Shown piece by piece: positions 2,529-30,431 of a DNA stretch of 46,425 nucleotides. The stretch is from Mollicutes bacterium. GTDB lineage: Bacteria; Bacillota_I; Bacilli_A; Izemoplasmatales; Izemoplasmataceae. Numbering within the stretch: position 1 is the first letter of the stretch; every line of letters starts with the position of its first letter. The DNA lies in assembly GCA_003559235.1 (NCBI GenBank), contig PWME01000211.1, forward strand, positions 1 to 46,425, read 5' to 3'. Both the position numbers and the translations under genes were made by a program. The notes under the pieces were generated by a model. The model had not been told where the DNA came from, did not search any database, and saw only the letters and a list, made by a program, of their open reading frames with translations.

Positions 2529-2552
2529 GATGGCCCGTGGCCATCTTTTTTT
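2529..2552 (+). terminator. intrinsic terminator (M-box expression platform)
   Basis: GATGGCC-CGT-GGCCATC hairpin (2529-2545) followed by a run of 7 T. Confidence 0.75.
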
Positions 2553-2706
2553 GGAGGAGGCGGTTGAATGATTCGAATACGTGAAAAAGATCCAGGCATT
2601 AAGCGCGTATGTGCCACGGTTTTTTTCATACACCGCCTTGAAAGTTTAGGCCATACGCGCTAACTTCCATTACATACCATTTAATCCCAATAAAGGAGGA
2701 ACCCCC

Positions 2707-4077
2707 ATGGATAAAGAACATGTTGCGACACTGAAATCATTGCGTCGCTTAATTGATACAAACCAAAAAGAAGCATTAAAAGATAAGATCAATAGTTTAG
2801 AAAATTATTTGCTTGCCGATATGATTGAACTTTTAGAACCAGAAAAACAAGTCGTTGTATTTCGTTTAATGGATAAAGATACCGCGCTTGATGTATTCGA
2901 ACATCTTGAGACAGAAATCCAACAAGATTTATTACAAAACTTTACCGATGAACGTGCCTTAGAGTTCTTCAAAGGCTTAGAACCCGATGATAGAGCCGCA
3001 TTAATGGATGAACTGCCAGCGAAAGTCGCAAAAAAACTCTTGCTTTCACTATCGAAGAAAGAAAAAGATTTAACCACCCTCGTCATGGGGTATAACGCTG
3101 GTACAGCGGGTCATATCATGACCCCAAAGTATATTTCCTTTAAACAAGGCACCACTGTACAAGACGCTTTAGATAAAATTAGAATGGTTGCTGATGAAGT
3201 TGAAACCATCTATCACTTGTATGTGACAGACCGGACACGCAAGCTTGAAGGCATGATTATGCTTAAAGATTTAATAACCGCTGAACCGGGTGCATTAATT
3301 GAAACCGTTATGGTTGAAAACCCACTGCATGCGGTTCACGATGTTAAAGACGAAGTCGTTGCGAAAATGTTGCAAGACTCTGACTTGCTCGCCATCCCGA
3401 TTGTTGATAAAGAACACCGTTTACTCGGTGTCGTCACCGTAGATGATGCGTTTGATGTATTGGAAGAAGACGCCATCGACCGTGAATTTACAACCGCTGG
3501 TTTTATCGACTTTGCCGGAAAAGAAATTGACCGTTCACGCGTTTTAACAACCGGAAAGTTATGGGAAATATGGCGTGTTCGCGTTCCCTTCCTCATTATC
3601 ACGTTGATTGGTGGTATGTTAGCGGGTGGGGTCATTAGTGGTTTTGAAGAAACCCTTGGTACATTCACCGTGCTCGCTTTCTTCATCCCAGTTGTCATGG
3701 ACTTGGGCGGGAATGTCGGTACCCAATCATCAACCATTTTCACCCGCGCAGTCGCACTGGGCCACATCGATTTTAAACGGTTTATTAAACAATGGTTAAA
3801 AGAAGTAACCGTAGGCGTCACGATGGGGCTAATGCTTGGTGTTGCTGGGGCGTTGATTGCTTTCATATGGCAAGGCGATATTCAGCTTTCGATTGTCATA
3901 TTCACGGCTTTGCTATTTACGATTACCATCGCCACAGCACTTGGTTTCATTGTCCCCTATCTCATGTTAAAAATCGGGGCGGATCAAGCGGCCGCAAGTG
4001 CGCCTTTCATCACGACTGTAAAAGACATTACCGGACTCTTTATTTTCTTCTTCTTAGCCTCAATCTTAATGCTTTAA
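2707..4077 (+). CDS. mgtE: magnesium transporter MgtE
   Basis: 456 aa with an MgtE N-domain, a CBS pair (IMTPKYISF...; LLAIPIVDKEHRLLGVVTVDDAFDVLEEDA) and a C-terminal 5-TM MgtE channel domain (PVVMDLGGNVGTQSS). AAGGAGG RBS. Preceded by the M-box. Confidence 0.95.
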   Translation: MDKEHVATLKSLRRLIDTNQKEALKDKINSLENYLLADMIELLEPEKQVVVFRLMDKDTALDVFEHLETEIQQDLLQNFTDERALEFFKGLEPDDRAALMDELPAKVAKKLLLSLSKKEKDLTTLVMGYNAGTAGHIMTPKYISFKQGTTVQDALDKIRMVADEVETIYHLYVTDRTRKLEGMIMLKDLITAEPGALIETVMVENPLHAVHDVKDEVVAKMLQDSDLLAIPIVDKEHRLLGVVTVDDAFDVLEEDAIDREFTTAGFIDFAGKEIDRSRVLTTGKLWEIWRVRVPFLIITLIGGMLAGGVISGFEETLGTFTVLAFFIPVVMDLGGNVGTQSSTIFTRAVALGHIDFKRFIKQWLKEVTVGVTMGLMLGVAGALIAFIWQGDIQLSIVIFTALLFTITIATALGFIVPYLMLKIGADQAAASAPFITTVKDITGLFIFFFLASILML

Positions 4078-9733: not shown

Positions 9734-9756
9734 ATACAAAAGAGACGGATAAACAC

Positions 9757-9864
9757 ATCTTCTCTCATCTAGACTATCACTATCGGTTTTGGAATTACAC
9801 CAAATCATGCGTAACGCTCGCGGACTATACCGCCGGTCGGGAATTGCGCCCTGCCCTGAAGATA
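9757..9864 (-). promoter_or_regulatory. FMN riboswitch (RFN element) aptamer
   Basis: Minus-strand read: TCTTCAGGGCAGGGCGCAATTCCCGACCGGCGGTATAGTCCGCGAGCG...GGTGTAATTCCAAAACCGATAGTGATAGTCTAGATGAGAGAAGA. It contains the invariant RFN blocks AGGGCAGGG.GAAATTCCCGACCGGCGGTA and CCGACAGTGAAAGTCTGGATG.GAGAAG. Confidence 0.9.
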
Positions 9865-9913
9865 TTCATTCATTTATATTACAACATGATTTTAGCATGT
9901 GAAACAATGAAAT

Positions 9914-13727: not shown

Positions 13728-15095
13728 TTAAGACGTTTTTAAGGTAAGCAGTGTGACGCTTTCAACGTGGCTTGTATGTGGAAACATATCAAACGGTGTG
13801 ATAGATTTTACGGTATAAAGTTTTCTTAAGCGTTCAATATCTTTTGCCAATGTACTCGGATTACAAGAAACATACACAAGTTTTTTAACCGGTTTTTTTA
13901 ACACTTGATCAATCAAACGTGCCCCTAACCCTGTTCTAGGTGGGTCAAACATCATCACATCAAACGTTTCTTTCGCTTCAAACAACGTTTTAATCGCCCT
14001 AGATGCATCATCACATAAGAAACGTACATGGTTAAATTGATTACGCTTTGCGTTTTCTTTCGCGCTGTCAATCGATGCTTGGGATGCATCAACCCCAACC
14101 ACACGTTTGAAGCGATTCGCAAAGGCTAATGCCATGGCACCACTACCTGTAAACATATCGCACAAACTTTCATCTGAGGTGTCAAATAACGTTTCGATGT
14201 GGGCAATCATCGCATGGGCTGCCTCTGGATTAATTTGATAAAAAGCTTTCGGTCCTAAAGCAACTTCAACATCACGAATCTTTTCCACAATATACTGTTT
14301 TCCTGCAACCACTTCAATGGAATCCCCAAAGACTTCATGATTTTTTGCGTCATGGCGAACACTCAGTGCCACACTAACAACATCGTCAATAGTGAGTAAC
14401 TTTTCCGCAAGCGGTTTTAACACCGTGCTTAAAATACTCACAACCAACGTCAATTGTACTTCATCCGTTGCACTGCTAATGCGGGCAACAATGTGCCTTA
14501 ATAACCCGCGCATGGTTTTTCCATCAAACGCACGAATTGATTGATCATTACATATCGCTAACGCTTTTTGAATCACGCGGTTTAACGTAGGGTGTTGGAC
14601 TGGGCAATCAGGAATGGAGAGTAAATCCATTGTGTTTTTCTTATAAAGCCCCGCAACGACGCCTTCTTTGGTTTGCATCACGGGCATTTGCGCTTTATGC
14701 CGATAGTGTTTTAAGGTATTAAGCGGGGTAAAGGATTGAAAAAGCGATTCGTCATCAACTTTGGGTGCATACCGATCAAACGCTTGCTTAAGTAAGTCTT
14801 CTTTTAAACGGAGTTGTTCATCATACGCGACGTGTTGCAGTTGACATCCACCACAAACCCCGTAGTACTTACAAAACGGCCGCGTTCGGTAATACGCGCG
14901 TTTTTTTATGCGAATCGTTTCACCGTAAGCGAAAGTTCGTTTTACATCGATAATCCGCACCACCACAACCTCTGGTGGCATAACACCATCCACAAACACG
15001 GCTTTGCGCTTATAAAAGCCAACCCCTTCACCGTTAATACCGATGGATTTAATCGTCAGTAATATTTCTTGGTCCTTTTCTAATTGAACATCCAT
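13728..15095 (-). CDS. 23S rRNA (uracil-C5)-methyltransferase, RumA/RlmCD family (paralog 1)
   Basis: 455 aa with an N-terminal TRAM domain, the Fe-S cysteine cluster CKYYGVCGGCQLQH, the SAM motif DMFTGSGAMAL, and C-terminal YVSCNPSTLAKD and FDMFPHTSHVE. Confidence 0.85.
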   Translation of the reverse strand: MDVQLEKDQEILLTIKSIGINGEGVGFYKRKAVFVDGVMPPEVVVVRIIDVKRTFAYGETIRIKKRAYYRTRPFCKYYGVCGGCQLQHVAYDEQLRLKEDLLKQAFDRYAPKVDDESLFQSFTPLNTLKHYRHKAQMPVMQTKEGVVAGLYKKNTMDLLSIPDCPVQHPTLNRVIQKALAICNDQSIRAFDGKTMRGLLRHIVARISSATDEVQLTLVVSILSTVLKPLAEKLLTIDDVVSVALSVRHDAKNHEVFGDSIEVVAGKQYIVEKIRDVEVALGPKAFYQINPEAAHAMIAHIETLFDTSDESLCDMFTGSGAMALAFANRFKRVVGVDASQASIDSAKENAKRNQFNHVRFLCDDASRAIKTLFEAKETFDVMMFDPPRTGLGARLIDQVLKKPVKKLVYVSCNPSTLAKDIERLRKLYTVKSITPFDMFPHTSHVESVTLLTLKTS

Positions 15096-15432: not shown

Positions 15433-16626
15433 TTACGATGACACACCGTCTTCTTTTAATAATTTTTCTGAAAAGACATCAATTAATATGGCTCCTAAGG
15501 GTGCACTTAATAGTATGGATATGACCGCAAGTGCCAACATTTTTTCTCCCCCAGCAATCCCAAGCGTTAAAGGCAATCCGCCAATTGACGCTTGCACCGT
15601 TGCTTTGGGTAAAAACGCCATCACAAAAAATGTGCGTTCACGAAGCGAAAACATGCTTCTTTGCGTCACAAGCAACACAGCCAGTGAACGCACGATTAAC
15701 CCACTAAGCACAATAACAATACCAATCAACCCAACCTCTAAGGCAACCATTGGATCAACCGCGGCCCCTACCAACACAAATAAGAATACCTCCGCAATAA
15801 CCCACACTTTATCAAATTTTCTTGACAGCCTTTCACCAAGCGGCGGTTTCTTTTCAATCATCACAATCCCTAAAACCATGACCCCAAGCAGCGCCGCAAT
15901 CGCTAAAGTGCCTTCAAGCCAATCAGCCAAAGCGACCATGAAGATACTTGCCGATAAAAGCATAATCACTTTTTTTGAATCGCGTATTTTAAACCGGTTA
16001 AACAAAAACAACATGGCAAATCCAACCATCAAACCAAGGACAACCCCTAACAGAATGGAGAGCGGAATCGAAAAAATTTGTAATGCCACATTGATGCTTG
16101 TGGCCGTACTGATTCCCACAAACATCGAAAAGACTGTAATGGCGATCACATCATCCACACTCGCAGACGCTAAAATAACCGATGGCGCATGGTTTTTCTT
16201 CCCAACCCCTTTTTTCATCAAAGCGAGCATAGAAGGGACAATAACAGCCGGTGAGACCGCCGCAATCATAAACCCTGTCATTCCACCTTGCACAAAACTA
16301 AAGTCAAACAAAATAATAACCATCAAGGCCACGAAAAGGCCTTCAAAAACCACGGGCACTGTGCTCATAAACGCCGCTGGTTTACCAATCTTTTGTAAGG
16401 TTTTTCGGTTCAATCCAAGTCCTGCGCGCAATAACACAATAATAAGCGTAATACGCCGAATATCCGTTGAGATGGCAAGCATCGAATCGTCCAACCAATT
16501 TAACGCACTCGGACCAACCAAAATACCACCAATAAGCATCCCAACCAGTGGTGGCATCTTCACTCTCGATGCAAAAAAACCAAACAATAACCCAACCGCA
16601 ATAATAACCGCTACACTAATCATCAT
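15433..16626 (-). CDS. cation:proton antiporter (Na+/H+ exchanger family)
   Basis: About 397 aa with roughly 11-12 TM helices. The N-terminus VAVIIAVGLLFGFFASRVKMPPLVGMLIGGILVGPSALNWLD is typical of the CPA family. Start at ATG 16626 (GGAGG 8 nt upstream). Confidence 0.75.
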   Translation of the reverse strand: MMISVAVIIAVGLLFGFFASRVKMPPLVGMLIGGILVGPSALNWLDDSMLAISTDIRRITLIIVLLRAGLGLNRKTLQKIGKPAAFMSTVPVVFEGLFVALMVIILFDFSFVQGGMTGFMIAAVSPAVIVPSMLALMKKGVGKKNHAPSVILASASVDDVIAITVFSMFVGISTATSINVALQIFSIPLSILLGVVLGLMVGFAMLFLFNRFKIRDSKKVIMLLSASIFMVALADWLEGTLAIAALLGVMVLGIVMIEKKPPLGERLSRKFDKVWVIAEVFLFVLVGAAVDPMVALEVGLIGIVIVLSGLIVRSLAVLLVTQRSMFSLRERTFFVMAFLPKATVQASIGGLPLTLGIAGGEKMLALAVISILLSAPLGAILIDVFSEKLLKEDGVSS

Positions 16627-16641
16627 ACGAATCGCCTCCAA

Positions 16642-16684
16642 TAAAAAACGCCTGTTCACAACGAAAAACGTTGTAAACAGGCGT
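16642..16684 (-). terminator. strong intrinsic terminator / leader hairpin between heliorhodopsin and the antiporter
   Basis: On the minus strand, ACGCCTGTTTACAACG-TTTTT-CGTTGTGAACAGGCGT (16-bp stem, one mismatch) followed by TTTTTT, immediately ahead of the antiporter RBS. Confidence 0.75.
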
Positions 16685-16730
16685 CATCAGCACATGGCAG
16701 TTTCGGTGAACACCATCACCATCGCGTTCA

Positions 16731-16765: not shown

Positions 16766-17557
16766 TTACGGTTGTAATGCACCAAAGAATACCAACCAAG
16801 CAAGAATCGATTTCGCCACAAGACTTAACACAATATACGTTCTTTCACCATACAGGTAGTCTTTCCATTTTCCAACCCGTAAATACTGTAAGATCATATT
16901 AACTGGGAATGTATTAAAGGCTACGAAGTACGTACCAACAATTGCCCATACAAACCATGGGACTTGGGATAAATCTGCAAGCCCAACCATGTACGTAATA
17001 ATGACAATCCATGGCGCAAGCCCGGCAATGGTTCCCCACACAAATGGTCCCCAATTGACTTCAGATTTTTCTTTGCCAGCGTTTAATTGTTCCATATCGA
17101 GACCAAACAAGTTCATCGCTGCATTCACAATAAAGATAAGAATCAATGAACCAATGTCGTATACGCCAAAGAGTGTTGCGATTAAGACGATCATAATCGA
17201 AGAACTGAGCGCATACTCAAACCAACGGAACTTATTGATGCCTTGTTTTAAGTCACGGTTATAAATATCGTTGGTCTTTTTCGGCAAACTAATTAAAAAG
17301 TGGGCACCTGCTGAGATAAACAAAAACGATGCGACCAAAATACCAAATGGTAGTTCAAACAAATCACTTCTACCTGGTACGAGCGTTTGTTCAACTGGGT
17401 CAAAATCTTGGAAATACTGTACAATCATCGGGGTAAATTCTGCCGCTTCACGAATCACGACAAACGCGAGTACAACCATTAAGATCCCTTGGATAAAATG
17501 GATCCCGCCCATGATAAGATTAAACTTTCTTAAACCTTTGAGTGTTCCTTCATTCAT
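16766..17557 (-). CDS. heliorhodopsin (retinal-binding 7-TM photoreceptor with inverted topology)
   Basis: 263 aa from ATG 17557 (AGGAGG 7 nt upstream). It aligns end to end with HeR 48C12 as I recall it: NKFRWFEYALSSSIMIVLIA vs NIFRWVEYSLSSSVMIVLIA (counterion Glu), and GERTYIVLSLVAKSILAWLVFFGAL vs GERAYIVLSLVAKSALAWQIFSGTL (Schiff-base Lys). The conserved His residues are present in GGIHFIQ and GAHFLIS. Confidence 0.88.
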   Translation of the reverse strand: MNEGTLKGLRKFNLIMGGIHFIQGILMVVLAFVVIREAAEFTPMIVQYFQDFDPVEQTLVPGRSDLFELPFGILVASFLFISAGAHFLISLPKKTNDIYNRDLKQGINKFRWFEYALSSSIMIVLIATLFGVYDIGSLILIFIVNAAMNLFGLDMEQLNAGKEKSEVNWGPFVWGTIAGLAPWIVIITYMVGLADLSQVPWFVWAIVGTYFVAFNTFPVNMILQYLRVGKWKDYLYGERTYIVLSLVAKSILAWLVFFGALQP

Positions 17558-17615
17558 GCTAAAGCCTCCTAAACGTTTTTTGGAAAATTCCATTATTATT
17601 TGACTGGTTACATTC

Positions 17616-17643
17616 ATTATACGTCTTTAAAGACAAATGTCAT
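17616..17643 (-). promoter_or_regulatory. candidate heliorhodopsin promoter with an embedded palindrome
   Basis: On the minus strand, ATGACA, 16-nt spacer, TATAAT. The spacer contains the perfect 12-bp palindrome GTCTTTAAAGAC (17623-17634). Confidence 0.45.
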
Positions 17644-17665: not shown

Positions 17666-18493
17666 CTATCCCCTTGACCGGGACGTGTTTTTTGCGATGA
17701 ATCCACGCATTAATGTAAGCAGTTCTTGAGGCTTTTCAAAGATGGCCACATGGGCACATTCGGGTATAATCACAAACTCAGATTTCTCTATTGACCGGTG
17801 AATGGCTTCAGAAAACTTCACCGGCTTTAAAATGTCATCTGCACCACAAACAACGAGCGTTGGTGCTGTGATTTTTTCTAAATCATCAATCATGTCAACA
17901 TCATGCAAAAATGTCTCATAAAGCGTCACTTGACCACGGTAATATTCAAGAGGCAGCTGCTCCATCGCTTCAATGCGCTTTGCCATGTCGGCTTGATGGG
18001 CTTGAATGTAATCAGGATGATAAAGCGTTGCTTTCACGCCTTCAAAAAATCGTTCAGCATCTTCAGTTTTCGCAAGCATAATCCACAGTTCAATAAACCG
18101 TTTCAATTGTTCATCCACACTTGCGGCTGAATCAATCACCGTCAGTGAAGCAACACGCGCTTTATGTGTAATTGCCATCTTCATCGCGACTTCTCCACCA
18201 TAAGAAGTGCCAATCATATGGGCACGCTTAACCCCAACCGCATTCATAATCGCACACGCATCTAAAGCGTGTTTTTCAAATGTATAGGGGCCTTCTGGCT
18301 TATCAGAAAGTAACTGACCACGCATGTCGTAAAGAATAACGCGCACCCCCATGCGTTCAAATAACTGTGCATAGAGCGACCAACTCGTGTATGACGCCAT
18401 GACACCATTATGAAACATAACCGTTTCCAAAGCGTCTTTAGGGCCCTTCACTTCATACGCTAAATGTACACCATCACGATGAATCGTTTTCAT
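17666..18493 (-). CDS. alpha/beta-fold hydrolase
   Basis: 275 aa with HNGVMAS (oxyanion region), the GTSYGG nucleophile elbow, and a C-terminal CAHVAIFE catalytic His region. AGAGGAGA RBS lies inside the end of the upstream gene. Confidence 0.7.
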   Translation of the reverse strand: MKTIHRDGVHLAYEVKGPKDALETVMFHNGVMASYTSWSLYAQLFERMGVRVILYDMRGQLLSDKPEGPYTFEKHALDACAIMNAVGVKRAHMIGTSYGGEVAMKMAITHKARVASLTVIDSAASVDEQLKRFIELWIMLAKTEDAERFFEGVKATLYHPDYIQAHQADMAKRIEAMEQLPLEYYRGQVTLYETFLHDVDMIDDLEKITAPTLVVCGADDILKPVKFSEAIHRSIEKSEFVIIPECAHVAIFEKPQELLTLMRGFIAKNTSRSRG

Positions 18494-19847
18494 GGGATGT
18501 CTCCTCTTTAATCAATAAAGAAACTGATTCAATGTGGCTCGTTTGCGGAAACATATCAAACGGGGTAACCGCTTCGACATGGTACCCTTGCGCTTGTAAA
18601 TAATTTAGGTCTCGCGCAAGTGTACTCACATTACATGAAATATACACAATCCGCGCAATATTCATAGCAGTAACATGTTCTAAAAACGCCTGATCGCATC
18701 CTTTTCTTGGTGGATCGACAAATAACACATCAATGGCTTCATCGCTAATCCTTGGCATAATTTGGCTGGCTTCACCATGGTGAAAGACTACGTTTTCTAT
18801 CGCGTTCATCTTAGCATTTACACGCGCATTTTTAATCGCTTCTTTTTCAATGTCAAACGCAATTACTTTCCCAACATGGGGTGCAAGTGCCAGCGCAAGA
18901 GAGCCAATGCCTGTGTATGCATCCAACACTGTCATCGTATTATTAACGTTTGCATATTTAAGCGCTTGCTTGTATACCAACTGTGTTTGTACAGGGTTAA
19001 TTTGGAAAAACGACTTATGCGACATCGTATAGCGGTGTTGCATCAACGTATCTTCTAACACATCATCACCGTGTAAGACTTTCGCTTTACCGTTTAATAC
19101 CGCTGGATTTTCACCTGTATTCACATGATGCACAATGGTTTTAATCTTTGGATATTTTGTGATTAAACGTTCAACTAAGGCATCTTTATGGGGTAATTTT
19201 GACGATTTTGTTACAAGGACAAGCGTCATCGCTTCGTTTGAACGACTTTGCCGAATTGATACCCCACGAAACACCCCTTTATCCGAACGGCTGCTATAGA
19301 TTGGTATATCAAGGTCTGACATATTTGATTTAATGAAACGTATAATATCAGAAAACACTTTAGGAAATACATGGCAGCGTTTTAAGTTAACAATATCGCG
19401 GCTTTGCGGCTGATGCAATCCCGCCACAATCCTTCCCCCGCGCATACCAAAATGGATGAATGTCTTATTGCGGTAATAATAAGGATTATTCATCCCAACG
19501 GTTGGTTTGACCGTGGTCTCTATATGGCCAAGCTTTTTAAGGGTTGTTCTTGTGCGGTGTTCTTTAAAATTTAACTGCGTTTGATAATCCATATGCATCG
19601 TATTGCAGCCACCACACACTTCATAGTGCTCACAAATTGGAATTTTGCGGTAAGGTGACGCCTCGCGAATGTCTACCAATCTGCCAATGCCAAAATTGGC
19701 ATTCCGCTTGATCAGTTTTATTAACGCGCGTTCCCCTTTTAATGCATCCTTGACGAAAACAGGATAGCCATCAATTCGGCACACCCCGCGCGCATCATGG
19801 GTCAAATCTGTAAACACCACTTCATGATAAGTATTATTGTCAACCAT
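18474..19847 (-). CDS. 23S rRNA (uracil-C5)-methyltransferase, RumA family (paralog 2)
   Basis: 457 aa with a TRAM domain, CEHYEVCGGCNTMHM, DAYTGIGSLALAL, YISCNVSTLARD and FDMFPQTSHIE. Confidence 0.85.
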   Translation of the reverse strand: MVDNNTYHEVVFTDLTHDARGVCRIDGYPVFVKDALKGERALIKLIKRNANFGIGRLVDIREASPYRKIPICEHYEVCGGCNTMHMDYQTQLNFKEHRTRTTLKKLGHIETTVKPTVGMNNPYYYRNKTFIHFGMRGGRIVAGLHQPQSRDIVNLKRCHVFPKVFSDIIRFIKSNMSDLDIPIYSSRSDKGVFRGVSIRQSRSNEAMTLVLVTKSSKLPHKDALVERLITKYPKIKTIVHHVNTGENPAVLNGKAKVLHGDDVLEDTLMQHRYTMSHKSFFQINPVQTQLVYKQALKYANVNNTMTVLDAYTGIGSLALALAPHVGKVIAFDIEKEAIKNARVNAKMNAIENVVFHHGEASQIMPRISDEAIDVLFVDPPRKGCDQAFLEHVTAMNIARIVYISCNVSTLARDLNYLQAQGYHVEAVTPFDMFPQTSHIESVSLLIKEETSHENDSS

Positions 19848-21125: not shown

Positions 21126-21164
21126 ATAAAAAAGCATCCATCCGGTTATATTCGGATGGATGCT
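21126..21164 (-). terminator. intrinsic terminator ending the micro-ORF operon
   Basis: On the minus strand, AGCATCCATCCG-AATATAAC-CGGATGGATGCT followed by TTTTTT. Confidence 0.75.
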
Positions 21165-21181: not shown

Positions 21182-21541
21182 CTATTCAATGACAACGCGA
21201 ACGGTGTCGCCATCAGAACTCTTAATATTGACGAGTTCACCGATTTCGCCGGAATCAACTAAATCAAGAACGGCTTCAATGTCTACATCAAGACCTTCAA
21301 GGTCAACTTTTTTCCCAAAGTGCTTTGAGCCTTTAAGGAACGTTCTCGCAAAGAGCATCGGCACTTGGACATTGACAACATCGCCATCGTTGCTTTGAAT
21401 AAATATTTTGAGCGATTTACCGTTTTTTACTGCTGGCTTTGGCGCTTGTTTGGCGCGCAACGTGGCAAGGCGTTCTTCAGCCTCTTGTGCGGTAATTTCC
21501 TTATTTTCAAGTTGATTTAAGATTTCAAGTTTTTCTTTCAT
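21182..21541 (-). CDS. small soluble protein with a YvlB/LiaX-type (SHOCT-like) N-terminal helix; function unknown
   Basis: 119 aa from ATG 21541 (AAGGAG 8 nt upstream). MKEKLEILNQLENKEITAQEAEERLATL resembles the N-termini of YvlB and LiaX. The remainder (KIFIQSNDGDVVNVQVP...GELVNIKSSDGDTVRVVIE) looks like a beta-rich domain. There is no terminator between it and the micro-ORFs. Confidence 0.6.
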   Translation of the reverse strand: MKEKLEILNQLENKEITAQEAEERLATLRAKQAPKPAVKNGKSLKIFIQSNDGDVVNVQVPMLFARTFLKGSKHFGKKVDLEGLDVDIEAVLDLVDSGEIGELVNIKSSDGDTVRVVIE

Positions 21542-21610
21542 GATTTTGCGCTCCTTTATATTAGATTCCAATCGCCTTCATGACGTTGGTTATTGCTTTA
21601 ACAAGGGTGA

Positions 21611-21691
21611 TTATTTTTTACCTTTCATCGCATCACGTTTGGCTTTGTTTATTTCGTAATATTCGATAATGCTATATCCACTATGCATCAT
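21611..21691 (-). CDS. micro-ORF A (26 aa): MMHSGYSIIEYYEINKAKRDAMKGKK
   Basis: GGAGGGAATATCTC precedes ATGATG. TAA stop. One of four tandem paralogs. Below the ORF-track cutoff; translated by hand. Confidence 0.55.
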   Translation of the reverse strand: MMHSGYSIIEYYEINKAKRDAMKGKK

Positions 21692-21718
21692 GAGATATTC
21701 CCTCCTTGGTTTTTATGA

Positions 21719-21802
21719 TTAGTATTTTTTTGATTTTTGATCGGTTTGCTTTGCCTTAAAGCGTTCATATTCTTGAATGATTGTATATCCAGTGCCCATC
21801 AT
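21719..21802 (-). CDS. micro-ORF B (27 aa): MMGTGYTIIQEYERFKAKQTDQKSKKY
   Basis: GGAGGAACCAATC precedes ATGATG. Its start overlaps the TGA stop of micro-ORF C (ATGA). Confidence 0.55.
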   Translation of the reverse strand: MMGTGYTIIQEYERFKAKQTDQKSKKY

Positions 21803-21915
21803 GATTGGTTCCTCCTTCGTTTCAAGTTATTGTGATAATGTATCGTTTTTGTGGCTTGCGTTTTTATTTTTGTTGTTTCGTATTGTTGAATCATTGCATA
21901 TCCTGCACACATCAT
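21799..21915 (-). CDS. micro-ORF C (38 aa): MMCAGYAMIQQYETTKIKTQATKTIHYHNNLKRRRNQS
   Basis: GGGAGGTATGAATC precedes ATGATG. The tail reads through the RBS of micro-ORF B. Confidence 0.55.
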   Translation of the reverse strand: MMCAGYAMIQQYETTKIKTQATKTIHYHNNLKRRRNQS

Positions 21916-21943
21916 GATTCATACCTCCCGTTATTGTTAGATT

Positions 21944-22033
21944 TTATTTTGACCGTTGTTTATTTGGAAATTGTCGGTTTTTCGCTTTGTAGATTTCATA
22001 GTATTCCATTACTGCATACCCTGCACACATCAT
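21944..22033 (-). CDS. micro-ORF D (29 aa): MMCAGYAVMEYYEIYKAKNRQFPNKQRSK
   Basis: GGAGGGTATGATC precedes ATGATG. TAA stop. Confidence 0.55.
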   Translation of the reverse strand: MMCAGYAVMEYYEIYKAKNRQFPNKQRSK

Positions 22034-22035
22034 GA

Positions 22036-22188
22036 TCATACCCTCCATCTTTCATTTTTTACGTCGGGTTCAAAATTGAATGCGTCTTGATGTTTTGTTA
22101 AAGCGTCATCGTTTGGTCGATTGATGCATCGCTTGTAGCATCGGTTGACCTGGGTGTTTCTTGATAAAGTGTTTTGAATGTTTTTCAC
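22036..22188 (-). CDS. candidate first ORF of the operon (50 aa): (M)KNIQNTLSRNTQVNRCYKRCINRPNDDALTKHQDAFNFEPDVKNERWRV
   Basis: GTG start 9 nt after GGAGG (complement of 22198-22202). The TGA stop lies 2 nt before the ATG of micro-ORF D. The alternative ATG at 22195 is only 2 nt from the SD and gives an unrelated 29-aa frame. Confidence 0.35.
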   Translation of the reverse strand: MKNIQNTLSRNTQVNRCYKRCINRPNDDALTKHQDAFNFEPDVKNERWRV

Positions 22189-22244
22189 AATGCATCACCT
22201 CCGTATAATTTATTATGTAGTTAATTATTTAAACTAAATTATTG

Positions 22245-22260
22245 TTTTTATTAATTTTTT
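22245..22260. repeat. 16-nt direct repeat TTTTTATTAATTTTTT, copy 1 (in the transcribed leader)
   Basis: An identical 16-mer occurs at 22339-22354. The two copies bracket the promoter, 94 bp apart. Confidence 0.7.
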
Positions 22261-22286
22261 GATTAGTTTTTCTTAACTACGCTTTC

Positions 22287-22315
22287 ATTCTATATGATGT
22301 TTTCTACAATGTCAA
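22287..22315 (-). promoter_or_regulatory. near-consensus sigma-A promoter of the micro-ORF operon
   Basis: On the minus strand, TTGACA (complement of 22310-22315), exactly 17 nt, TAGAAT (complement of 22287-22292). Confidence 0.65.
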
Positions 22316-22338
22316 TAGAAAAGTTAAATTTTTTTATC

Positions 22339-22354
22339 TTTTTATTAATTTTTT
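22339..22354. repeat. 16-nt direct repeat TTTTTATTAATTTTTT, copy 2 (upstream of -35)
   Basis: Identical to 22245-22260. Confidence 0.7.
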
Positions 22355-22435
22355 TAATTTTTTGGTTTAATATATTGATTTATTTAGATTCATAGCATGA
22401 TATTTTTGCTTTGTATTCTTTATATAGCCATAAAA

Positions 22436-22465
22436 AAAGCACCCGCTTAAGCGAGTGCGCACATT
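22436..22465 (-). terminator. intrinsic terminator of the ABC-2 exporter operon
   Basis: On the minus strand, GCACTCGC-TTAA-GCGGGTGC followed by TTTTTTT. Confidence 0.75.
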
Positions 22466-22474: not shown

Positions 22475-23278
22475 CTATTTTTCTAATGTATTCACAAAGT
22501 GTCGATACGCGAGTGCTGTTAGTCCAATCATAAAGACTGCCCCAATTATCAAATACAAAATGGGTGGCAAGTTGTGTTCGTGGTCTAAAAGTTCTGCAGC
22601 CGTCATCAATCCTTTAACGGGCCAGAAGACTGGCACAATACCGAGTAAATACTGTTTGGCATCCTGCATGGTTTCAATCACGACAAGTGCTGGAATCAGT
22701 ATGATTATGCCTGAAAACTTCATATAGGCAAAGCCTTCTATTTTATTGTTCGCAAGGCTGGCCATGATTAATGCAAAAACCGGGGTAAAAAGTCCCGCAA
22801 CCAATGCATACACAAGAACCCAGGGAATCGTAAAGTTTTCAAAAAGATCAACCGTTCCAATCCCTGGTATGGTGAAAGTATACCCATCACCGCTTAACCA
22901 TTTTGTGCCCATAATAACCCAAAACGCTGCGTTAACCCCCAAGATATAGGCGTAGACGGTTTTAAACCGAATGTAGCCACTTAAAGACATCGGTGTCACC
23001 CTGATAGTATCAAGCGTATTTTCATCTTTATTATCAAGCAATAAGAACCCAAGTAAGGCAGCACTTACAAATGGGGCGATGCTTGCAAACAATATAATCA
23101 TGACAATACCAGCCACCATCGTGCCTTGTGTGTCACCCCCAAAACGATCCAGCAACATTGGTAAAAGAAAAGACCCAACAATAATGAGCATTAATGGATA
23201 AACAAGCATCACAATGGTCATGCTATCTCTAATGATATTCTTTAATTCATAACGAAATAATTTGAGTGCACGTTTCAT
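22475..23278 (-). CDS. ABC-2-type exporter permease (second of two)
   Basis: 267 aa with 6 TM helices. GAGGGA RBS. It follows the first permease with a 1-nt gap. Confidence 0.7.
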   Translation of the reverse strand: MKRALKLFRYELKNIIRDSMTIVMLVYPLMLIIVGSFLLPMLLDRFGGDTQGTMVAGIVMIILFASIAPFVSAALLGFLLLDNKDENTLDTIRVTPMSLSGYIRFKTVYAYILGVNAAFWVIMGTKWLSGDGYTFTIPGIGTVDLFENFTIPWVLVYALVAGLFTPVFALIMASLANNKIEGFAYMKFSGIIILIPALVVIETMQDAKQYLLGIVPVFWPVKGLMTAAELLDHEHNLPPILYLIIGAVFMIGLTALAYRHFVNTLEK

Positions 23279-23279
23279 A

Positions 23280-24002
23280 TTAATCCCTCACCGATGATAA
23301 CGCATATTTCGGTACAATAATCCATTTAAACATGATAACAATCAAGGCAAACAAATACATCGTTCCGACCACCAGCATCCATGCATCAACCGTTTCACCA
23401 AAACTAAAGTTTATCATGATGAAAGAAACGTGTGTTGGTGAAAAGAGGAAAATCCACTCAGCCGCATCTCCTAAAACTCCAAGCGCATAAAAAATGGTCG
23501 GAAACGCAAATAATAACATGTATAACCCAACCCCGGCAATCAAGCCATTGAAATCACGCGAATAAATAGAGAAGACAAAACCAATCGCCGTATGGACAAG
23601 CGTAATCACAATAACAAAGAAAACCAAAGGCACAAATTTGACCACCACATCAAACAAAATCGCCGCAAAAATTGCGATGAGTAATGCGGATTGTAATGCA
23701 ACATACACCGCTGTCACAAGCTTTGAAGCTAAAATAGCCCCAAACCCTGAAGGCGTAACCATTAAGGTTTTTAACGTGTTTTCCTGTTTTTCATAAAACA
23801 AACTCGCACCAATCCATATCATTGTCATTAAAGCCGTATCCACAAAAACGATTGTTGGAATAAAAGCACCGGCTTGTTCTTTACCAATTAAATAAATCAC
23901 CGCCAACCAAATGAGGGTTACCCCAAAACTAATTTGAATAATGTTATATTTTATAAGTCTGGTAAACTCTCCTTTTAATAATTTCAAAAAATTATCCATC
24001 AT
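23280..24002 (-). CDS. ABC-2-type exporter permease (first of two)
   Basis: 240 aa with 6 TM helices. The YEKQENTLKTLMVTP motif is typical of ABC-2 permeases. ATGA overlap with the ATPase gene. Confidence 0.7.
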   Translation of the reverse strand: MMDNFLKLLKGEFTRLIKYNIIQISFGVTLIWLAVIYLIGKEQAGAFIPTIVFVDTALMTMIWIGASLFYEKQENTLKTLMVTPSGFGAILASKLVTAVYVALQSALLIAIFAAILFDVVVKFVPLVFFVIVITLVHTAIGFVFSIYSRDFNGLIAGVGLYMLLFAFPTIFYALGVLGDAAEWIFLFSPTHVSFIMINFSFGETVDAWMLVVGTMYLFALIVIMFKWIIVPKYALSSVRD

Positions 24003-24856
24003 TGTTTTTCACCCGTCACTTTAATGAATATTTCATCCAGTGAGGTTTCACCACTATGCATGGTCTCTATGGTTTTTTCTTGGATCAAAGACAAGAAAGT
24101 TTCATCGTTACCAATCTCATCAAGATTAAAGACTTTACGTTCTGTACCACTATTTTCATAATACTCTACCGCTAGTTCTCTACGACCATACTTCAATTTA
24201 AGTGCGCGCGGGGTTGAAGTTTCCACAATCTCACCATCTTTAATAAACGCAACCCGGTCACACAACTCTTCAACATCATTCATTAAGTGCGTACTTAAAA
24301 AGACCGTTCCACCCGCTTCTTTAAATGCTTTAATCATATCTTTAATGATCCGCGCATTTTTCGGGTCAAGTCCATTAGTAACTTCATCCAAAAAGAGTAC
24401 TTTAGGGTCGTTTAACATTGCTCTTACAAAGTTAAGCCGCATTTTCATCCCCTTTGAATATTCACCAACGGGTCGGTCTTTATCTTCATAAAGGCCAACC
24501 TGTTTTAACAACGCATCCACATCGGCATTGCGTTGATAAAGCATTTTGAAAAATGCCATGTTCTCAGCCGCTGTTAACTTAGAAAAATGCACTGGCAACT
24601 CAAAACCAACCCCGATGGTCTCAAAGTATTCATTGCCATATTCATGCAAGTCTTTTCCTTTGTAGACAATGGAGCCTTCATAATCTTTAAACAGTCGTGT
24701 CAAAATCTTTTGAGTCGTTGATTTTCCTGCCCCACTGGGTCCAAGCAATCCAAAGACTTCACCCTTTTGCACAGAGAAACTAATGCCACGCACCGCTTCA
24801 ATCGCGCTTTTACGGTACTTAAACCGCAAGTCTTTCACTTCAAAGAGTTTTTCCAT
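23999..24856 (-). CDS. ABC transporter ATP-binding protein (ABC-2 exporter subfamily)
   Basis: 285 aa. Walker A is GPSGAGKST, the signature-like motif is YSKGMKMRL, and Walker B is VLFLDEVTNGLD. GGAGGG RBS. Confidence 0.85.
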   Translation of the reverse strand: MEKLFEVKDLRFKYRKSAIEAVRGISFSVQKGEVFGLLGPSGAGKSTTQKILTRLFKDYEGSIVYKGKDLHEYGNEYFETIGVGFELPVHFSKLTAAENMAFFKMLYQRNADVDALLKQVGLYEDKDRPVGEYSKGMKMRLNFVRAMLNDPKVLFLDEVTNGLDPKNARIIKDMIKAFKEAGGTVFLSTHLMNDVEELCDRVAFIKDGEIVETSTPRALKLKYGRRELAVEYYENSGTERKVFNLDEIGNDETFLSLIQEKTIETMHSGETSLDEIFIKVTGEKQ

Positions 24857-24930
24857 TGTACCCTCCGTTTAATGCGTCTTCATTATGTATTATGGCATAC
24901 CTTCTAAAAGTCCACAAGAAAAAGCGCCGG

Positions 24931-26895: not shown

Positions 26896-26960
26896 GTTAT
26901 CACCGTTATCATTGTATCACAAAGCGTACGGTATGATACAATGAATGATGGAGGATGCGT

Positions 26961-28586
26961 ATGGTTATTTATGTAGCGATTGACACGAAATATATCCACG
27001 TGAATCACGCGGTGAACTTGTTACAAGCGAATACATCAAGACCTTCAATAACGTTGACCTTTACGATTCATGATCCCCTTGAAACGATTTTCAAATCAAT
27101 CATGAACCATGACCCTGACGCCGTCGGTTTTTCCGTATACATGTGGAATGTGGAGGCAGTTTTAACCCTCACAAAATGGTTAAAAGGGCGTGGTAAACTC
27201 GTTATTCTCGGTGGACCAGAAGTGTCTTATGATGCAACGCATTTTTTAACTGTGAGCGATGCCGATGTTATTGTGAAAGGTGAAGCGGAAGCCGTGATTA
27301 ATAAGGTACTCGATTACCTTATCGACAAAACCCCTTTGGGTGCTTATGGGGTTGCTTATAAAAAAGGCACAAAGATTATTGATGGCACCACGGCGTGTGT
27401 TGAAAACTTAGCTACCATCAAACAACCCGTCTTTACCAAAACAATGCAAAGAGAAGCAGCGCATCAAGTGCACTATATCGAAGCATCAAGAGGGTGTCCT
27501 TACCAATGCAGTTTTTGTTTATCATCATTAGAAAAAGGGGTTCGGTTTTTCCCCGTTGAAACCATCACAAACACAATGGATACCCTCATTGAAAACGGCG
27601 CAAAAACCATTAAGTTTCTTGACCGAACTTTTAACGCAAACCCAAAAACGTTAGCCATCATTAAACATATTATTGACCACTACCATTTACATGATGCTGT
27701 CTTTCAGTTTGAAATAACCGGAGAAACCTTAGACCCCGCAATTATCGCGTTTATACACAAACATGCACCAAAGGAATTGTTTCGGTTTGAAATTGGTATT
27801 CAGTCTACGCACCCATTAACCAATAAACTAACCCAGCGCGCCCCAACCTCAAATGCATTACTCAATACCATTAAAACCATCATCGACACCAACATCATCG
27901 ATGTGCATCTCGATTTGATTGCCGGGTTACCAAAAGAAGATTTGACGCGCTTTAAAGAAAGTTTTAACACCGTTGCGGCATTAAAACCACCAGAACTACA
28001 ACTCGGTTTTCTAAAAATGTTGCGAGGCACAAAAATTCGCAATGAAGCCAACCGCTTCAAGTATCGCTTCAATCCTTCACCGCCTTATGAAATCATTGAA
28101 AATGATGTCTTAACGAAAGACGATATTGCAAGAATAAAGTCTGTAGAAATTGTTTTAAACCGTTTCCATAATCGCGGATTATTTGGCCAACATGTCCTCG
28201 ATGCAGCGGTAGATTATGGCAATCCTTTTGACTTTTTTGAAAAACTTTCAGAAACCTTAAAAAACCAAGGCATTTCAACCTTACGCTATCAACTAAAAAC
28301 GTTATACAGCGTCTTCGAACAATTCTTGGCTGAGCTCAATATGCTTGAATCGCGGTGTGATGCTTTACGCTATACGTATTTAACGCGCGCCAAAACCAAA
28401 CCACCACCCTATTTCCCACTCATCAAAGATAAAACCGTAAAATACCAAGTCTATAAAGCCATGCATGCGCGTTATGGTGTATCTGTGGATACTTTGTTTA
28501 AACACGCAATTCTTACCAAACGACAAGATGGTTCACTGCTTGCTGTACTTTATCAAAATCATCAAGCAGTGCCTTATCGTCTATGA
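26961..28586 (+). CDS. B12-binding-domain radical SAM protein with a C-terminal DUF4080-like region
   Basis: The N-terminal cobalamin-binding-like Rossmann region precedes SRGCPYQCSFC (CxxxCxxC). ATG 26961 (GGAGG 6 nt upstream) is preferred over 26955. Confidence 0.75.
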   Translation: MVIYVAIDTKYIHVNHAVNLLQANTSRPSITLTFTIHDPLETIFKSIMNHDPDAVGFSVYMWNVEAVLTLTKWLKGRGKLVILGGPEVSYDATHFLTVSDADVIVKGEAEAVINKVLDYLIDKTPLGAYGVAYKKGTKIIDGTTACVENLATIKQPVFTKTMQREAAHQVHYIEASRGCPYQCSFCLSSLEKGVRFFPVETITNTMDTLIENGAKTIKFLDRTFNANPKTLAIIKHIIDHYHLHDAVFQFEITGETLDPAIIAFIHKHAPKELFRFEIGIQSTHPLTNKLTQRAPTSNALLNTIKTIIDTNIIDVHLDLIAGLPKEDLTRFKESFNTVAALKPPELQLGFLKMLRGTKIRNEANRFKYRFNPSPPYEIIENDVLTKDDIARIKSVEIVLNRFHNRGLFGQHVLDAAVDYGNPFDFFEKLSETLKNQGISTLRYQLKTLYSVFEQFLAELNMLESRCDALRYTYLTRAKTKPPPYFPLIKDKTVKYQVYKAMHARYGVSVDTLFKHAILTKRQDGSLLAVLYQNHQAVPYRL

Positions 28587-28623: not shown

Positions 28624-30117
28624 TTAAGGTTGAACGGGCACATTTTGCGATTTATCGCCATTCGATGTGCGCATCTCTAAACGGTCTAAGATAAAGGATA
28701 AATCATTGTTGTGGTAATCAATATCACCATTGCTTGTACGGAGTGAAACATCACGCGTGTAAACGTCATCTAAAGCAATTTTGCCATTTGATGTTCTCGC
28801 AACCAATGTTTCACCGTTTTTCGCTTCTTCATTGAGATTCTCGATGATAATTGAACCGTTGCTTGTTGTAAGGTTGACATCAATCGCTTTTCCATTTAAT
28901 AATTCAATCGCGCCATTGCTTGTTTCCATAGTAAGTGATGGTGTTTCAAACGATTCAGCGGTTAACTTACCATTGGTGCTTTTTACATCAATAGTCTCTG
29001 CAATGACTTCTTCTATGGTGACAGTACCGTTGGAAGTTTGGAGATCAATGGTGGCAACGTCTAACCCATTAAGTTGAATAGAACCATTCGTGGTCTCGAT
29101 GTTAATATCATCCAATAAGAGGTTATCTGGTACTTCAATGACAACTTCTGGCAGTTGAAATGAACCAAAAATGTTGAAGAAGAAAAATCTTTCGTATGTA
29201 TTTTCAAAGCGAATCGTTTGGGTACTTTCATCATAGTCAAGCTCTAGTGGGGTATCCTCTCGTTCTTCAGAGCGAACGATTAACATGTTGGTTGAGGTGC
29301 TGATGATTCGCACCCGGCCAATTTCTAGTGCGCCTTCAATCGACCATGTTTCACCATCGTTAATCGCATCACTCATATCATAATCATAAACATAGGTTTC
29401 AATATCCATGCGTTCGTTAAACCCAGGCAAAGCACCAATGCGCACAATAGAAACAACACTACCGAGTACCAAAAACACAAGCGCAAGTAATGTCGCAATA
29501 CTTCTTGCTCGTTGCAATGATGGTGTTTTTCTAACGAGTTCATAAAAGCGTAAACGACGGATGGAACGATAAATATGGCGTGGGTTACCGATTTTGAAAA
29601 CTTCTGCATGCCAACGCACCAACCAGGCGATAAAGCCAATAAAAACATCATAGAGCGCTAACACCAAAAGCAACCATAAAAACGCCAACCCAAGTCCGCC
29701 AAGAAACGGTAAAACCCCAATACCAGCGTCGAAAGAGAAGTTCGCTAACAGTCGCGTTACGTATGTGAGTAATCCACCAGCAAGCGCAACCGTGAGACCA
29801 CTTAATGCCCCAACAATAATCGCAACAAGGAAAATATCAAAAAGAATAATACCAATAATACTGCCAACACCAGATTCCTTTTTTTCCACTTTTTGCGCTG
29901 CCAATAAACGGTTTGAATCAAACCCGTACTCTTCTAATACATGTCTGGCAATTTGTTTTGGGGATTCGAGTTCATCAATAATCTCCGCTTCGGTTTTTCC
30001 TTCATAGCGAACACCCGTATTAAATCGTTCTTCATAAAATGATAAGATTTCTTTACGTTCTTCTTCGTTTAAAACGTCTAAATAGTGTGCTAATCTTTCC
30101 AAAAATTGCTTTTTCAT
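28624..30117 (-). CDS. DUF1700 membrane protein fused to a DUF4097 beta-helix repeat domain
   Basis: The N-terminus MKKQFLERLAHYLDVLNEEERKEILSFYEERF is DUF1700. A central TM block follows, then a C-terminus with about 8 repeats of roughly 20 aa carrying (T/S)(S/T)NG(S/T/K/A/D)(I/V/L). Start at ATG 30117 (GAGGAG 8 nt upstream). Confidence 0.7.
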   Translation of the reverse strand: MKKQFLERLAHYLDVLNEEERKEILSFYEERFNTGVRYEGKTEAEIIDELESPKQIARHVLEEYGFDSNRLLAAQKVEKKESGVGSIIGIILFDIFLVAIIVGALSGLTVALAGGLLTYVTRLLANFSFDAGIGVLPFLGGLGLAFLWLLLVLALYDVFIGFIAWLVRWHAEVFKIGNPRHIYRSIRRLRFYELVRKTPSLQRARSIATLLALVFLVLGSVVSIVRIGALPGFNERMDIETYVYDYDMSDAINDGETWSIEGALEIGRVRIISTSTNMLIVRSEEREDTPLELDYDESTQTIRFENTYERFFFFNIFGSFQLPEVVIEVPDNLLLDDINIETTNGSIQLNGLDVATIDLQTSNGTVTIEEVIAETIDVKSTNGKLTAESFETPSLTMETSNGAIELLNGKAIDVNLTTSNGSIIIENLNEEAKNGETLVARTSNGKIALDDVYTRDVSLRTSNGDIDYHNNDLSFILDRLEMRTSNGDKSQNVPVQP

Positions 30118-30122
30118 TATTC

Positions 30123-30431
30123 TCACTCCTCAATAAATCTTTCAACGCGTTTCACAAAGGATTGCCATGAAGCGCGTAAAGTTTGTAATTGTTTAACCCC
30201 TGCATCAGTTATCGTGAAATATTTCCTTGGAGGACCATCAGGTGAGTCCTGTAACGTTGTATCCAATAACCCCTGTTTAACCATTTTTCTTAAGATTGGG
30301 TAAATGGTACTTTCACTTATGCCTAAGGCATCGTTGATAAGACGATAGATATTATAGCCGTAATTATCTTCGTGTTCTAAGGTGCCCAAAACACATAAAT
30401 CAAGCACGCCTTTTTTAAGTTGTATATCCAT
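30123..30431 (-). CDS. PadR-family transcriptional regulator
   Basis: 102 aa. LDLCVLGTLEHEDNYGYNIYRLI...STIYPILRKMVKQGLL is a PadR winged helix. Confidence 0.85.
   Translation of the reverse strand: MDIQLKKGVLDLCVLGTLEHEDNYGYNIYRLINDALGISESTIYPILRKMVKQGLLDTTLQDSPDGPPRKYFTITDAGVKQLQTLRASWQSFVKRVERFIEE

Follow-up and report, generated by a model that had tools for sequence, protein, structure and literature searches.

What are the four tandem micro-open reading frames (micro-ORFs) that precede the gene for a 119-amino-acid (aa) SHOCT-like protein in an uncultured, wall-less bacterium, and what might their products do? They lie in a 46-kb stretch of DNA from a Mollicutes bacterium (contig PWME01000211.1, positions 1 to 46,425), the whole of which we call the window. 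Small proteins of fewer than 40 aa are largely invisible to annotation, and an earlier note on this DNA, made from the sequence alone, had drawn attention to the array. Comparison with loci of relatives (designated below by L-numbers) indicates that the four are genes of a micro-protein family that is always found directly upstream of the SHOCT-like gene, and the explanation that we tentatively favor is that their products act inside the cell together with the SHOCT-like protein. Homologues of that protein place the window in uncultured Izemoplasmatales/Acholeplasmatales (Mycoplasmatota), and many of the relatives come from soda-lake or hypersaline samples.

Organization of the micro-ORF operon

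The operon lies wholly on the minus strand. It begins at a sigma-70-type promoter, TTGACA-17-TAGAAT (22287-22315), which agrees with the consensus at 11 of 12 positions and is the best promoter match of the region, and continues through a conserved transcribed leader (22217-22286; GAAAGCGTAGTTAAGAAAAACTAATCAAAAAATTAATAAAAAC...) into a 50-aa ORF with a GTG start (22036-22188; Shine-Dalgarno [SD] sequence ACGGAGGTG) that contains the motif CYKRC. Then follow micro-ORFs D (21944-22033; 29 aa, MMCAGYAVMEYYEIYKAKNRQFPNKQRSK), C (21799-21915; 38 aa), B (21719-21802; 27 aa, MMGTGYTIIQEYERFKAKQTDQKSKKY), and A (21611-21691; 26 aa, MMHSGYSIIEYYEINKAKRDAMKGKK), and the SHOCT-like gene (21182-21541) comes last. 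An intrinsic terminator with a perfect 12-bp stem followed by TTTTTAT (21133-21164) closes the operon, and no terminator was found inside it. A second intrinsic terminator (22439-22458, minus strand; 8-bp stem with 6 GC pairs and a T-run) closes the upstream operon of an ATP-binding cassette transporter of the ABC-2 type and thus stands between that operon and the micro-ORF unit; it is conserved in L091, L092, and L095.

The units from D to A are direct repeats with start-to-start distances of 111, 113, and 118 nt and a 52-nt core in which the copies are 65 to 79% identical to one another. Every micro-ORF has a GGAGG of its own 8 to 9 nt ahead of ATGATG (8 nt in D). With a single promoter and a single terminator at the end, the promoter, the 50-aa ORF, the four paralogous micro-ORFs, and the SHOCT-like gene are, as predicted from these signals, one transcription unit. 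The earlier note had proposed this layout, and its promoter, its GTG-initiated ORF, its regular spacing, its four peptide sequences, its individual ribosome-binding sites, and its single strong terminator after the 119-aa gene all stand. Its one misreading within the repeats concerns the string said to be invariant, given as ATCATGATG; the string actually present is TCATGATG, and copy A reads CTCATGATG.

Neighboring frames are closely linked. The stop codon of C overlaps the start of B (ATGA), which was the translational coupling claimed for this pair, and the tail of C runs through the SD sequence of B; because the corresponding frame in L091 stops earlier, this tail extension is lineage specific. 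The 50-aa ORF stops 2 nt before the start of D, so that these two are closely coupled as well, and its C-terminal ERWRV codons double as the ribosome-binding site of D. Over the 13 codons of its core (QVNRCYKRCINRP), the 50-aa ORF differs between the window and L091 at four sites, all of them third positions and all synonymous, which argues for constraint at the level of the peptide. It appears to be a real small protein, and it matched no family in Pfam, NCBIfam, or PADLOC.

Evidence that the peptides are conserved

The four window copies share M1, M2, G5, Y6, Y12, E13, K16, and K18, giving an 18-residue, Met- and Tyr-rich, mildly acidic core (MMxxGYxx[I/M]xxYExxKxK) that is followed by a variable basic tail. 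Conserved residues are encoded by different synonymous codons in different copies (GGG/GGA, TAT/TAC, AAA/AAG, GCG/GCA/GCC, and ATT/ATC), as the earlier note had pointed out and as can be read directly in the sequence. All four frames, with their start codons and ribosome-binding sites, are retained in the nearest relatives, namely, L092 to L095 and L098 (the species being the same or almost so) and L091, whose SHOCT-like protein is 86% identical to that of the window. The L091 peptides keep the eight invariant residues and have changed at the variable ones (the orthologue of D is MMNTGYAMVEYYEIYKAKHKEFPKKQRTK), and two of the L091 copies differ from each other solely by synonymous changes. A variant of micro-ORF A, P0016 (Y11H), also occurs in relatives.

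Differences at codon positions 1, 2, and 3 numbered 403, 218, and 577, respectively, across 114 paralogue or orthologue pairs from four lineages; since these pairs are not independent, it is the pattern that counts and not a P value. Conservation is highest within the N-terminal part of the ORFs rather than in the spacers. Neither the four repeat units nor the spacer that follows A has a fold better than that of shuffled controls (z = -0.08 to -0.58), and a structured RNA was therefore rejected; Rfam, searched over the window, matched nothing on the repeats and only M-box, FMN, and fluoride riboswitches elsewhere. The evidence thus points, as the earlier note had argued, to conservation of the peptide and not of the RNA, with open, SD-preceded frames across species, a codon-position bias, synonymous copies in L091, and no signal of RNA structure. 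To judge from sequence, the micro-ORFs are genuine, individually translated micro-protein genes, under clear purifying selection and equipped with strong expression signals.

Arrays in related genomes

Homologous frames in relatives had been set beforehand as a test of the proposal, and they are present. Orthologous arrays of three to six copies, each copy open and preceded by an SD sequence, occur in about ten related Izemoplasmatales/Acholeplasmatales genomes (array loci: the window, L091/L092, L001/L011, L003/L013, L004/L012, L006/L016, L015/L099, and L010/L017). The syntenic order is uvrB-(TetR)-ABC-2-gap-SHOCT-like-sdaA-trmA, and the 3 to 6 micro-ORFs occupy the gap of 740 to 1,200 nt. 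Peptide sequence otherwise differs by lineage (examples are MNTEMMMTYQTAKTKLMTNKRNRKY, MNEAMIRTYEKIKADQAVRKNR, MCCYEMMIAYEAAKCKEAMYKDNEKR..., and MMSNANAALQATYDRIKAKLNEQ...), and what is common across genomes is a core of the form [I/M]xxY[E/Q]xxKx[K/D] with a basic tail. Family-wide conservation falls on Y12 (29 of 31 copies), K16 (29/31), and E13 (23/31).

The peptide cores are on average 58% identical among copies of the same genome and 30% identical among copies from different lineages. L006 on the one hand and L007/L016 on the other encode an identical SHOCT-like protein (P0011) and carry three and four micro-ORF copies (MNEAMIRTYE(K/R)IKAD-type), respectively, a difference of exactly one 95-nt unit. 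Together, this one-unit difference and the higher identity within genomes suggest that the arrays expand, contract, and homogenize. A regular expression combining motif and SD sequence, run over both strands of the window and 90 loci, matched only directly 5' of the SHOCT-like gene, with one stray exception. By these comparisons, the four genes go back to a small gene, predicted to be cotranscribed with the SHOCT-like gene, that was multiplied in tandem in a lineage-specific manner.

The cultured Liberiplasma polymorphum C05PYG (L014) has SD-preceded micro-ORFs in the same position, much more diverged (e.g., MNEMFGTLFNQFVQSEKESLRKEEKQNLRK) and at most candidate homologues of the window family; their presence in a cultured organism makes the locus experimentally accessible.

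A previously undescribed micro-protein family

The claim that the peptides lie outside known families was borne out. The four peptides matched no family in Pfam at an E value of ≤10 and none in NCBIfam or PADLOC, and a four-peptide profile searched against 1.84 billion representative proteins returned only four matches, all of them close relatives of the window peptides. A profile of 60 peptides found only six unnamed micro-ORFs of 37 to 38 aa of the single-copy type described below. Of the four window peptides, only C is present in a collection of 15 billion proteins, and the relatives that were found carry no functional name. No description of such micro-ORFs was found in the literature on SHOCT with small ORFs, Izemoplasma with small proteins, DUF2089, or Liberiplasma, and the DUF2089/SHOCT passages of a paper on these domains (bioRxiv 10.1101/2020.09.24.301986) do not mention them. 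The peptides are, by these searches, a real and previously undescribed micro-protein family. A phage or defense origin was rejected: PADLOC defense models found only generic ABC-ATPase similarity among the operon proteins, and the module was absent from viral contigs.

The SHOCT-like partner and its DUF2089 context

Every array lies directly upstream of a SHOCT-like gene, which is its only constant partner. The pair stays together even where the genes further downstream are different, as in L010/L017 (CDP-OH-P transferase, RecA, and RNase Y) and L042 (others). The earlier note had called the 119-aa protein YvlB/LiaX-like and had suggested checking whether the flanking genes co-occur with the array. 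The first part of this holds only insofar as the protein has a putative N-terminal, SHOCT-like two-helix module (23.5 bits against Pfam PF22746, below the cut-off of 27), a match that is precomputed for most of its homologues; it has no Toastrack (DUF4097) domain. As to co-occurrence, the 119-aa gene proved to be a robust partner and the ABC-2 exporter did not.

The protein has 2,507 homologues at an E value of ≤1e-5, none of which carries a functional name and most of which are hypothetical or unnamed. An AlphaFold2 model built from 105 sequences is of moderate quality (predicted local distance difference test [pLDDT], 69.8; predicted template modeling score, 0.38; pLDDT in a first run, 48.7) and predicts two confident N-terminal helices (pLDDT of about 90) followed by three beta-hairpin/helix units. 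No solved relative was found by sequence search of the PDB, and Foldseek gave no match against the PDB. According to a published prediction (bioRxiv 10.1101/2020.09.24.301986), SHOCT-like domains and DUF2089 belong to membrane-proximal signaling modules of a DUF2089/Lia/Psp-like kind. Because the partner belongs to a large family without known function, the peptides give experimenters a concrete way into it.

In most Izemoplasmatales/Acholeplasmataceae the usual order is a SHOCT-like protein of about 117 aa with a transmembrane (TM) segment, then DUF2089, then the SHOCT-like protein, whose gene is last. The DUF2089 protein combines a Zn ribbon, a helix-turn-helix (HTH), and a SHOCT-like part, and the SHOCT-like-TM protein and the 119-aa protein are paralogues. 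No DUF2089 gene is present in the 46-kb window; relatives with a single micro-ORF or with none do have one. Single-type loci number about 25 and form one coherent clade, with one GGAGG-preceded ORF of 34 to 45 aa (e.g., MYDMELLFKEICCRANERKLLIEELDDKRRYIKNLKK) in a gap of 136 to 233 nt between the DUF2089 gene and the SHOCT-like gene; in other clades, the gap is less than 50 nt and holds no micro-ORF. A neighbor-joining tree of the SHOCT-like proteins puts array loci and single-ORF loci in separate clades, and a profile-profile comparison (hhalign) of array-type with single-type peptides was not significant (E = 0.087). Therefore, the association with micro-ORFs either is old and was lost repeatedly or arose twice.

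The micro-ORFs were also considered as duplicated fragments of the SHOCT-like N terminus, of DUF2089, or of the TM-SHOCT protein, and this origin was rejected (hhalign E values of 0.14 to 0.96). In L018, an SD-preceded 42-aa ORF adjoining the micro-ORF (2708-2836) partially duplicates the SHOCT-like C terminus of the DUF2089 gene before it, which shows that small duplications readily occur in this intergenic region.

With the known neighborhoods of DUF2089, SHOCT-like, and Toastrack proteins, which are contexts of Lia/Psp-like membrane stress signaling (bioRxiv 10.1101/2020.09.24.301986), the window operon has the putative SHOCT-like two-helix module in common, and with DUF2089-carrying loci of relatives it shares the promoter and leader; unlike them, the window operon has no DUF2089 or TM-SHOCT gene and no Toastrack domain. 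A separate gene for a HAAS plus Toastrack (DUF4097) protein is found some 7 kb away (28624-30126, minus strand), and a 102-aa ORF upstream of it (30123-30431) is possibly its PadR-like partner. Membrane-stress signaling proteins of the HAAS/Toastrack kind are discussed alongside SHOCT-like domains.

A control region shared with DUF2089 loci

At all locus types, array-type and single-type alike, a perfect TTGACA, a 17-nt spacer, and TAnnnT are followed by GAAGKTGTARTYAAGRAAATTAAT..AAAATTAATAAAATYAAT. Likewise, window-type and DUF2089-carrying loci have TTGACA-17-TAnnnT followed by GAAGKTGTARTYAAGRAA...ATTAAT repeats. TTGACA was perfect in all 18 locus regions that were compared, an A/T-rich region of ATTAAT repeats lies 5' of the -35 box in them, and the core leader motif occurs a single time per locus in the 18 loci, exclusively at this promoter; ATTAAT/GTTGTAATCAAG are conserved elements of the leader. 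The promoter/leader element is found also in L004, L006, L012, L014 to L018, L020, L100, L126 to L128, L140, and others, and it also accounts for spurious "KINKIN" ORFs, which in many loci have their start at the -35 box. Given the shared promoter and leader and the lack of a DUF2089 gene in the window, we conclude that the window lineage kept the control region and lost the TM-SHOCT and DUF2089 genes.

In the window, the A/T-rich region (22316-22385, minus strand) contains repeated (A)TTAAT elements, is highly conserved in close relatives, and shares a 46-nt direct repeat (repeat family D2) with the leader at a distance of 103 nt. The leader itself can form a hairpin between GTAGTTAA (22273-22280) and TTAACTAC (22217-22224), with a fold z of -2.0. 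Promoter and leader are highly conserved across very diverged genomes, and palindromic ATTAAT hexamers flank the promoter on both sides. The ATTAAT repeats look like an operator array, possibly for DUF2089.

A possible intracellular role with the SHOCT-like protein

The peptides are strongly hydrophilic (grand average of hydropathy [GRAVY], -0.9 to -1.5) and weakly amphipathic (hydrophobic moment, 0.15 to 0.46), with cationic tails and a net charge of +1 to +6. This composition speaks against a membrane-active role, as far as such a role can be judged from sequence. Our best explanation, to which we give a probability of roughly 40%, is that the peptides are abundant micro-proteins that remain inside the cell, work together with the SHOCT-like protein, and probably bind it. 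In its favor are the constant linkage to the SHOCT-like gene, the shared transcription unit, the coding evidence, the hydrophilic composition, the variable copy number, and the signaling role predicted for SHOCT-like domains. The data show how the arrays are built, that their frames are constrained as coding sequence, and what their synteny, their changes in copy number, and their physicochemistry are. As to location, we infer that the peptides would be kept in the cytoplasm or on the inner side of the membrane; they would bind the SHOCT-like protein, either as its ligands or as its subunits, and the number of copies (3 to 6, variable between strains) would set the peptide dose relative to this partner.

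Three observations weigh against this explanation. Most of the SHOCT-like loci that were classified have no micro-ORF, which means that the partner does not need the peptides. Homology between array-type and single-type peptides is not demonstrable and their loci fall into different clades, so that for one of the two types the association may be due to coincidence. Finally, the ABC-2 exporter that neighbors all array-type loci would fit export of the peptides equally well.

Could the peptides be exported?

Export is a serious alternative, although we consider it unlikely. The peptides would leave the cell through the adjacent ABC-2 transporter, as phenol-soluble modulin (PSM)-like or leaderless-bacteriocin-like molecules or as signals, and the SHOCT-like protein would provide immunity or sensing. 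The transporter operon (22475-24856, minus strand) comprises an ATPase gene (23999-24856) and two permease genes (23280-24002 and 22475-23278), and wherever the sequence upstream of an array can be seen, it contains an ABC-2 permease gene, also in loci with other downstream genes. Moreover, the arrays show rapid divergence, concerted evolution, and changing copy numbers, all of which is common in antagonistic or signaling peptides, and the cationic tails noted above would suit such peptides too. Against export stands the transporter itself, which is a separate unit with a terminator of its own and, in most relatives, a TetR gene of its own. It is also generic: the ATPase scores 94.9 bits with the PmtA model, whose cut-off is 350, its best match, also below cut-off, is the DrrA subfamily, and the permeases matched no NCBIfam family. 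In addition, the operons of single-type loci do not include a transporter. The TetR gene precedes the ABC-2 operon in most relatives (e.g., L001, 119-739; L180, 6119-6739) and is missing in the window and L092; in the window, merely 74 nt (24857-24930) separate uvrB from the ABC ATPase gene. In L014, the ABC-2 permease gene and the micro-ORF region are separated by an inserted gene (776-2170, minus strand) for a 464-aa multipass membrane protein, a candidate transporter of MATE-type appearance.

The psm-alpha and delta-toxin loci of Staphylococcus, whose products are exported by Pmt, likewise have tandem leaderless micro-ORFs of 20 to 30 codons with their own SD sequences on one transcript and an ABC-2-class transporter encoded nearby, and delta-toxin shares the acidic to neutral N-terminal half and the Lys-rich C-terminal end. 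Unlike PSMs, however, the window peptides do not have the composition of a strongly amphipathic, hydrophobic helix: they are hydrophilic (GRAVY of about -1, with values of -0.95 to -1.30), and their maximum hydrophobic moment is no more than 0.33 to 0.38. GRAVY values of +0.15 to +0.96 and moments of 0.41 to 0.66 were obtained for PSMs, delta-toxin, aureocin A70, enterocin L50A, and lacticin Q, and PSM-alpha1, PSM-alpha3, and delta-toxin have GRAVY values in the same range and moments of 0.53 to 0.66, so the earlier note was right to call the window peptides much more polar. They have no match to the PSM/delta-lysin families of Pfam or to bacteriocin families in Pfam or NCBIfam, the window ATPase is no PmtA equivalog, and the arrays have a SHOCT-like, cytoplasmic partner that PSM loci are without.

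Leaderless class II bacteriocins (enterocin L50/DD14, aureocin A70, thucin A, and bawcin) are also encoded by tandem, highly similar genes. The clusters for enterocin DD14, bawcin, and thucin A encode a DUF2089-family (HTH) protein together with ABC transporter genes (PMC7332713, PMC10707071, PMC9484092), that of thucin A having three tandem structural genes beside its DUF2089 protein and ABC genes (PMC9484092); an ORF of the enterocin L50 cluster scored 29.7 bits with the DUF2089-HTH model, below the cut-off of 33.4. In relatives of the window, similarly, a micro-ORF adjoins the DUF2089 gene. In contrast, the window array adjoins no DUF2089-HTH, small membrane protein, bPH2, or HlyD/ABC-FtsX exporter gene, the window as a whole is free of DUF2089, bPH2, and HlyD genes, and these bacteriocins are hydrophobic, cationic, Trp-rich peptides of 30 to 53 aa, whereas those described here are polar and cationic (+3 to +6 for the peptides of 26 to 38 aa), have 22 to 38 aa, and show no sequence similarity to them in Pfam or NCBIfam. 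In layout, the array thus belongs with the known operons of tandem leaderless micro-ORFs, as a variant in which peptide chemistry and genetic partner are different, and a psm-alpha-like arrangement of this kind exists outside the hydrophobic toxins.

A broader proposal, which we offer as speculation and hold to be more doubtful than export as such, joins elements of both explanations. The hydrophilic leaderless peptides, whether exported via the ABC-2 pump or retained, may be the natural ligands of the SHOCT-like protein in a peptide-sensing, Lia-like membrane circuit, with the dose set by copy number. If true, this would give a first functional handle on the widespread SHOCT-like/DUF2089 module (>2,500 homologues).

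Regulatory, modified-peptide, and noncoding explanations

It is also conceivable, although improbable, that the micro-ORFs are cis-acting upstream ORFs whose translation tunes the stability or translation of the SHOCT-like cistron through coupling or ribosome stalling. They are on one mRNA with the SHOCT-like gene and always upstream of it, and the tight coupling described above (50-aa ORF to D, C to B) would suit such a device. The minimum-free-energy fold of the spacer that leads from A to the SHOCT-like gene pairs a CCCU just after the stop codon of A with part of the SHOCT-like SD sequence, but this pairing is 4 bp long, is no better than in shuffles (z = -0.55), and is not conserved in L091. 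A small hairpin in the same spacer (CCAACG-N9-CGATTGG, 21568-21589, minus strand, in the fold of 21530-21615), whose CCAACG...CGTTGG stem is retained in L091, has no T-run and is therefore not a terminator. There is no terminator/antiterminator pair and there are no regulatory codon runs, the SHOCT-like gene has a good SD sequence of its own, and three to six copies with consensus SD sequences and conservation at the amino acid level would not be expected of a simple coupling device.

The earlier note had raised the possibility of ribosomally synthesized and posttranslationally modified peptides (RiPPs), with Cys3, Tyr6, and Tyr12 as sites. We regard it as highly improbable that the peptides are RiPP precursors whose Tyr, Cys, Glu, or Lys residues are modified by an enzyme with a gene at another place, for which the candidate would be a B12-binding radical S-adenosylmethionine (SAM)/DUF4080 protein whose gene is divergent from uvrB, about 5 kb from the array (26955-28586, plus strand). 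The conserved Tyr-Glu..Lys core would offer sites, and the radical SAM gene stands beside uvrB in L180 too (2308-3957; DLM2.Bin112 genome). However, uvrB and the ABC operon lie between that gene and the array, the immediate neighbors of the array are ABC-2, SHOCT-like, sdaA, and trmA genes, and the operons of the loci inspected contain no maturase, protease, or RiPP recognition element gene. Cys3 is variable (C/G/H/N), Tyr6 is conserved solely in the window lineage, and peptides of 22 to 29 aa are probably too short for a leader plus a core.

That the frames are incidental to a noncoding tandem repeat of DNA or RNA, such as a set of protein-binding sites or a structured RNA, is highly unlikely, for although the units are direct DNA repeats of 111 to 118 nt in an A/T-rich region with conserved noncoding elements, about ten diverged genomes retain frames, starts, and SD sequences despite nucleotide change, substitutions show a three-base periodicity, conservation peaks in the ORF N termini and not in the spacers, and neither an Rfam match nor an excess of folding energy was found.

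Other features of the window

Several features lie outside the operon. A heliorhodopsin gene (16766-17617, minus strand; Pfam E value, 1e-96) is present in this wall-less bacterium and is found beside the locus in L006, L007, and L092 as well. Close to it, a fluoride riboswitch (16671-16729, minus strand) lies directly upstream of a Na+/H+ exchanger-family gene (15433-16659, minus strand), not of crcB or ClC-F. The M-box (Mg2+) riboswitch (2367-2522, plus strand) and the FMN riboswitch (9753-9867, minus strand) are both well above their Rfam gathering scores. Two paralogous TRAM plus tRNA(U5)-methyltransferase genes (18474-19847 and 13728-15095, both on the minus strand) are less than 6 kb apart.

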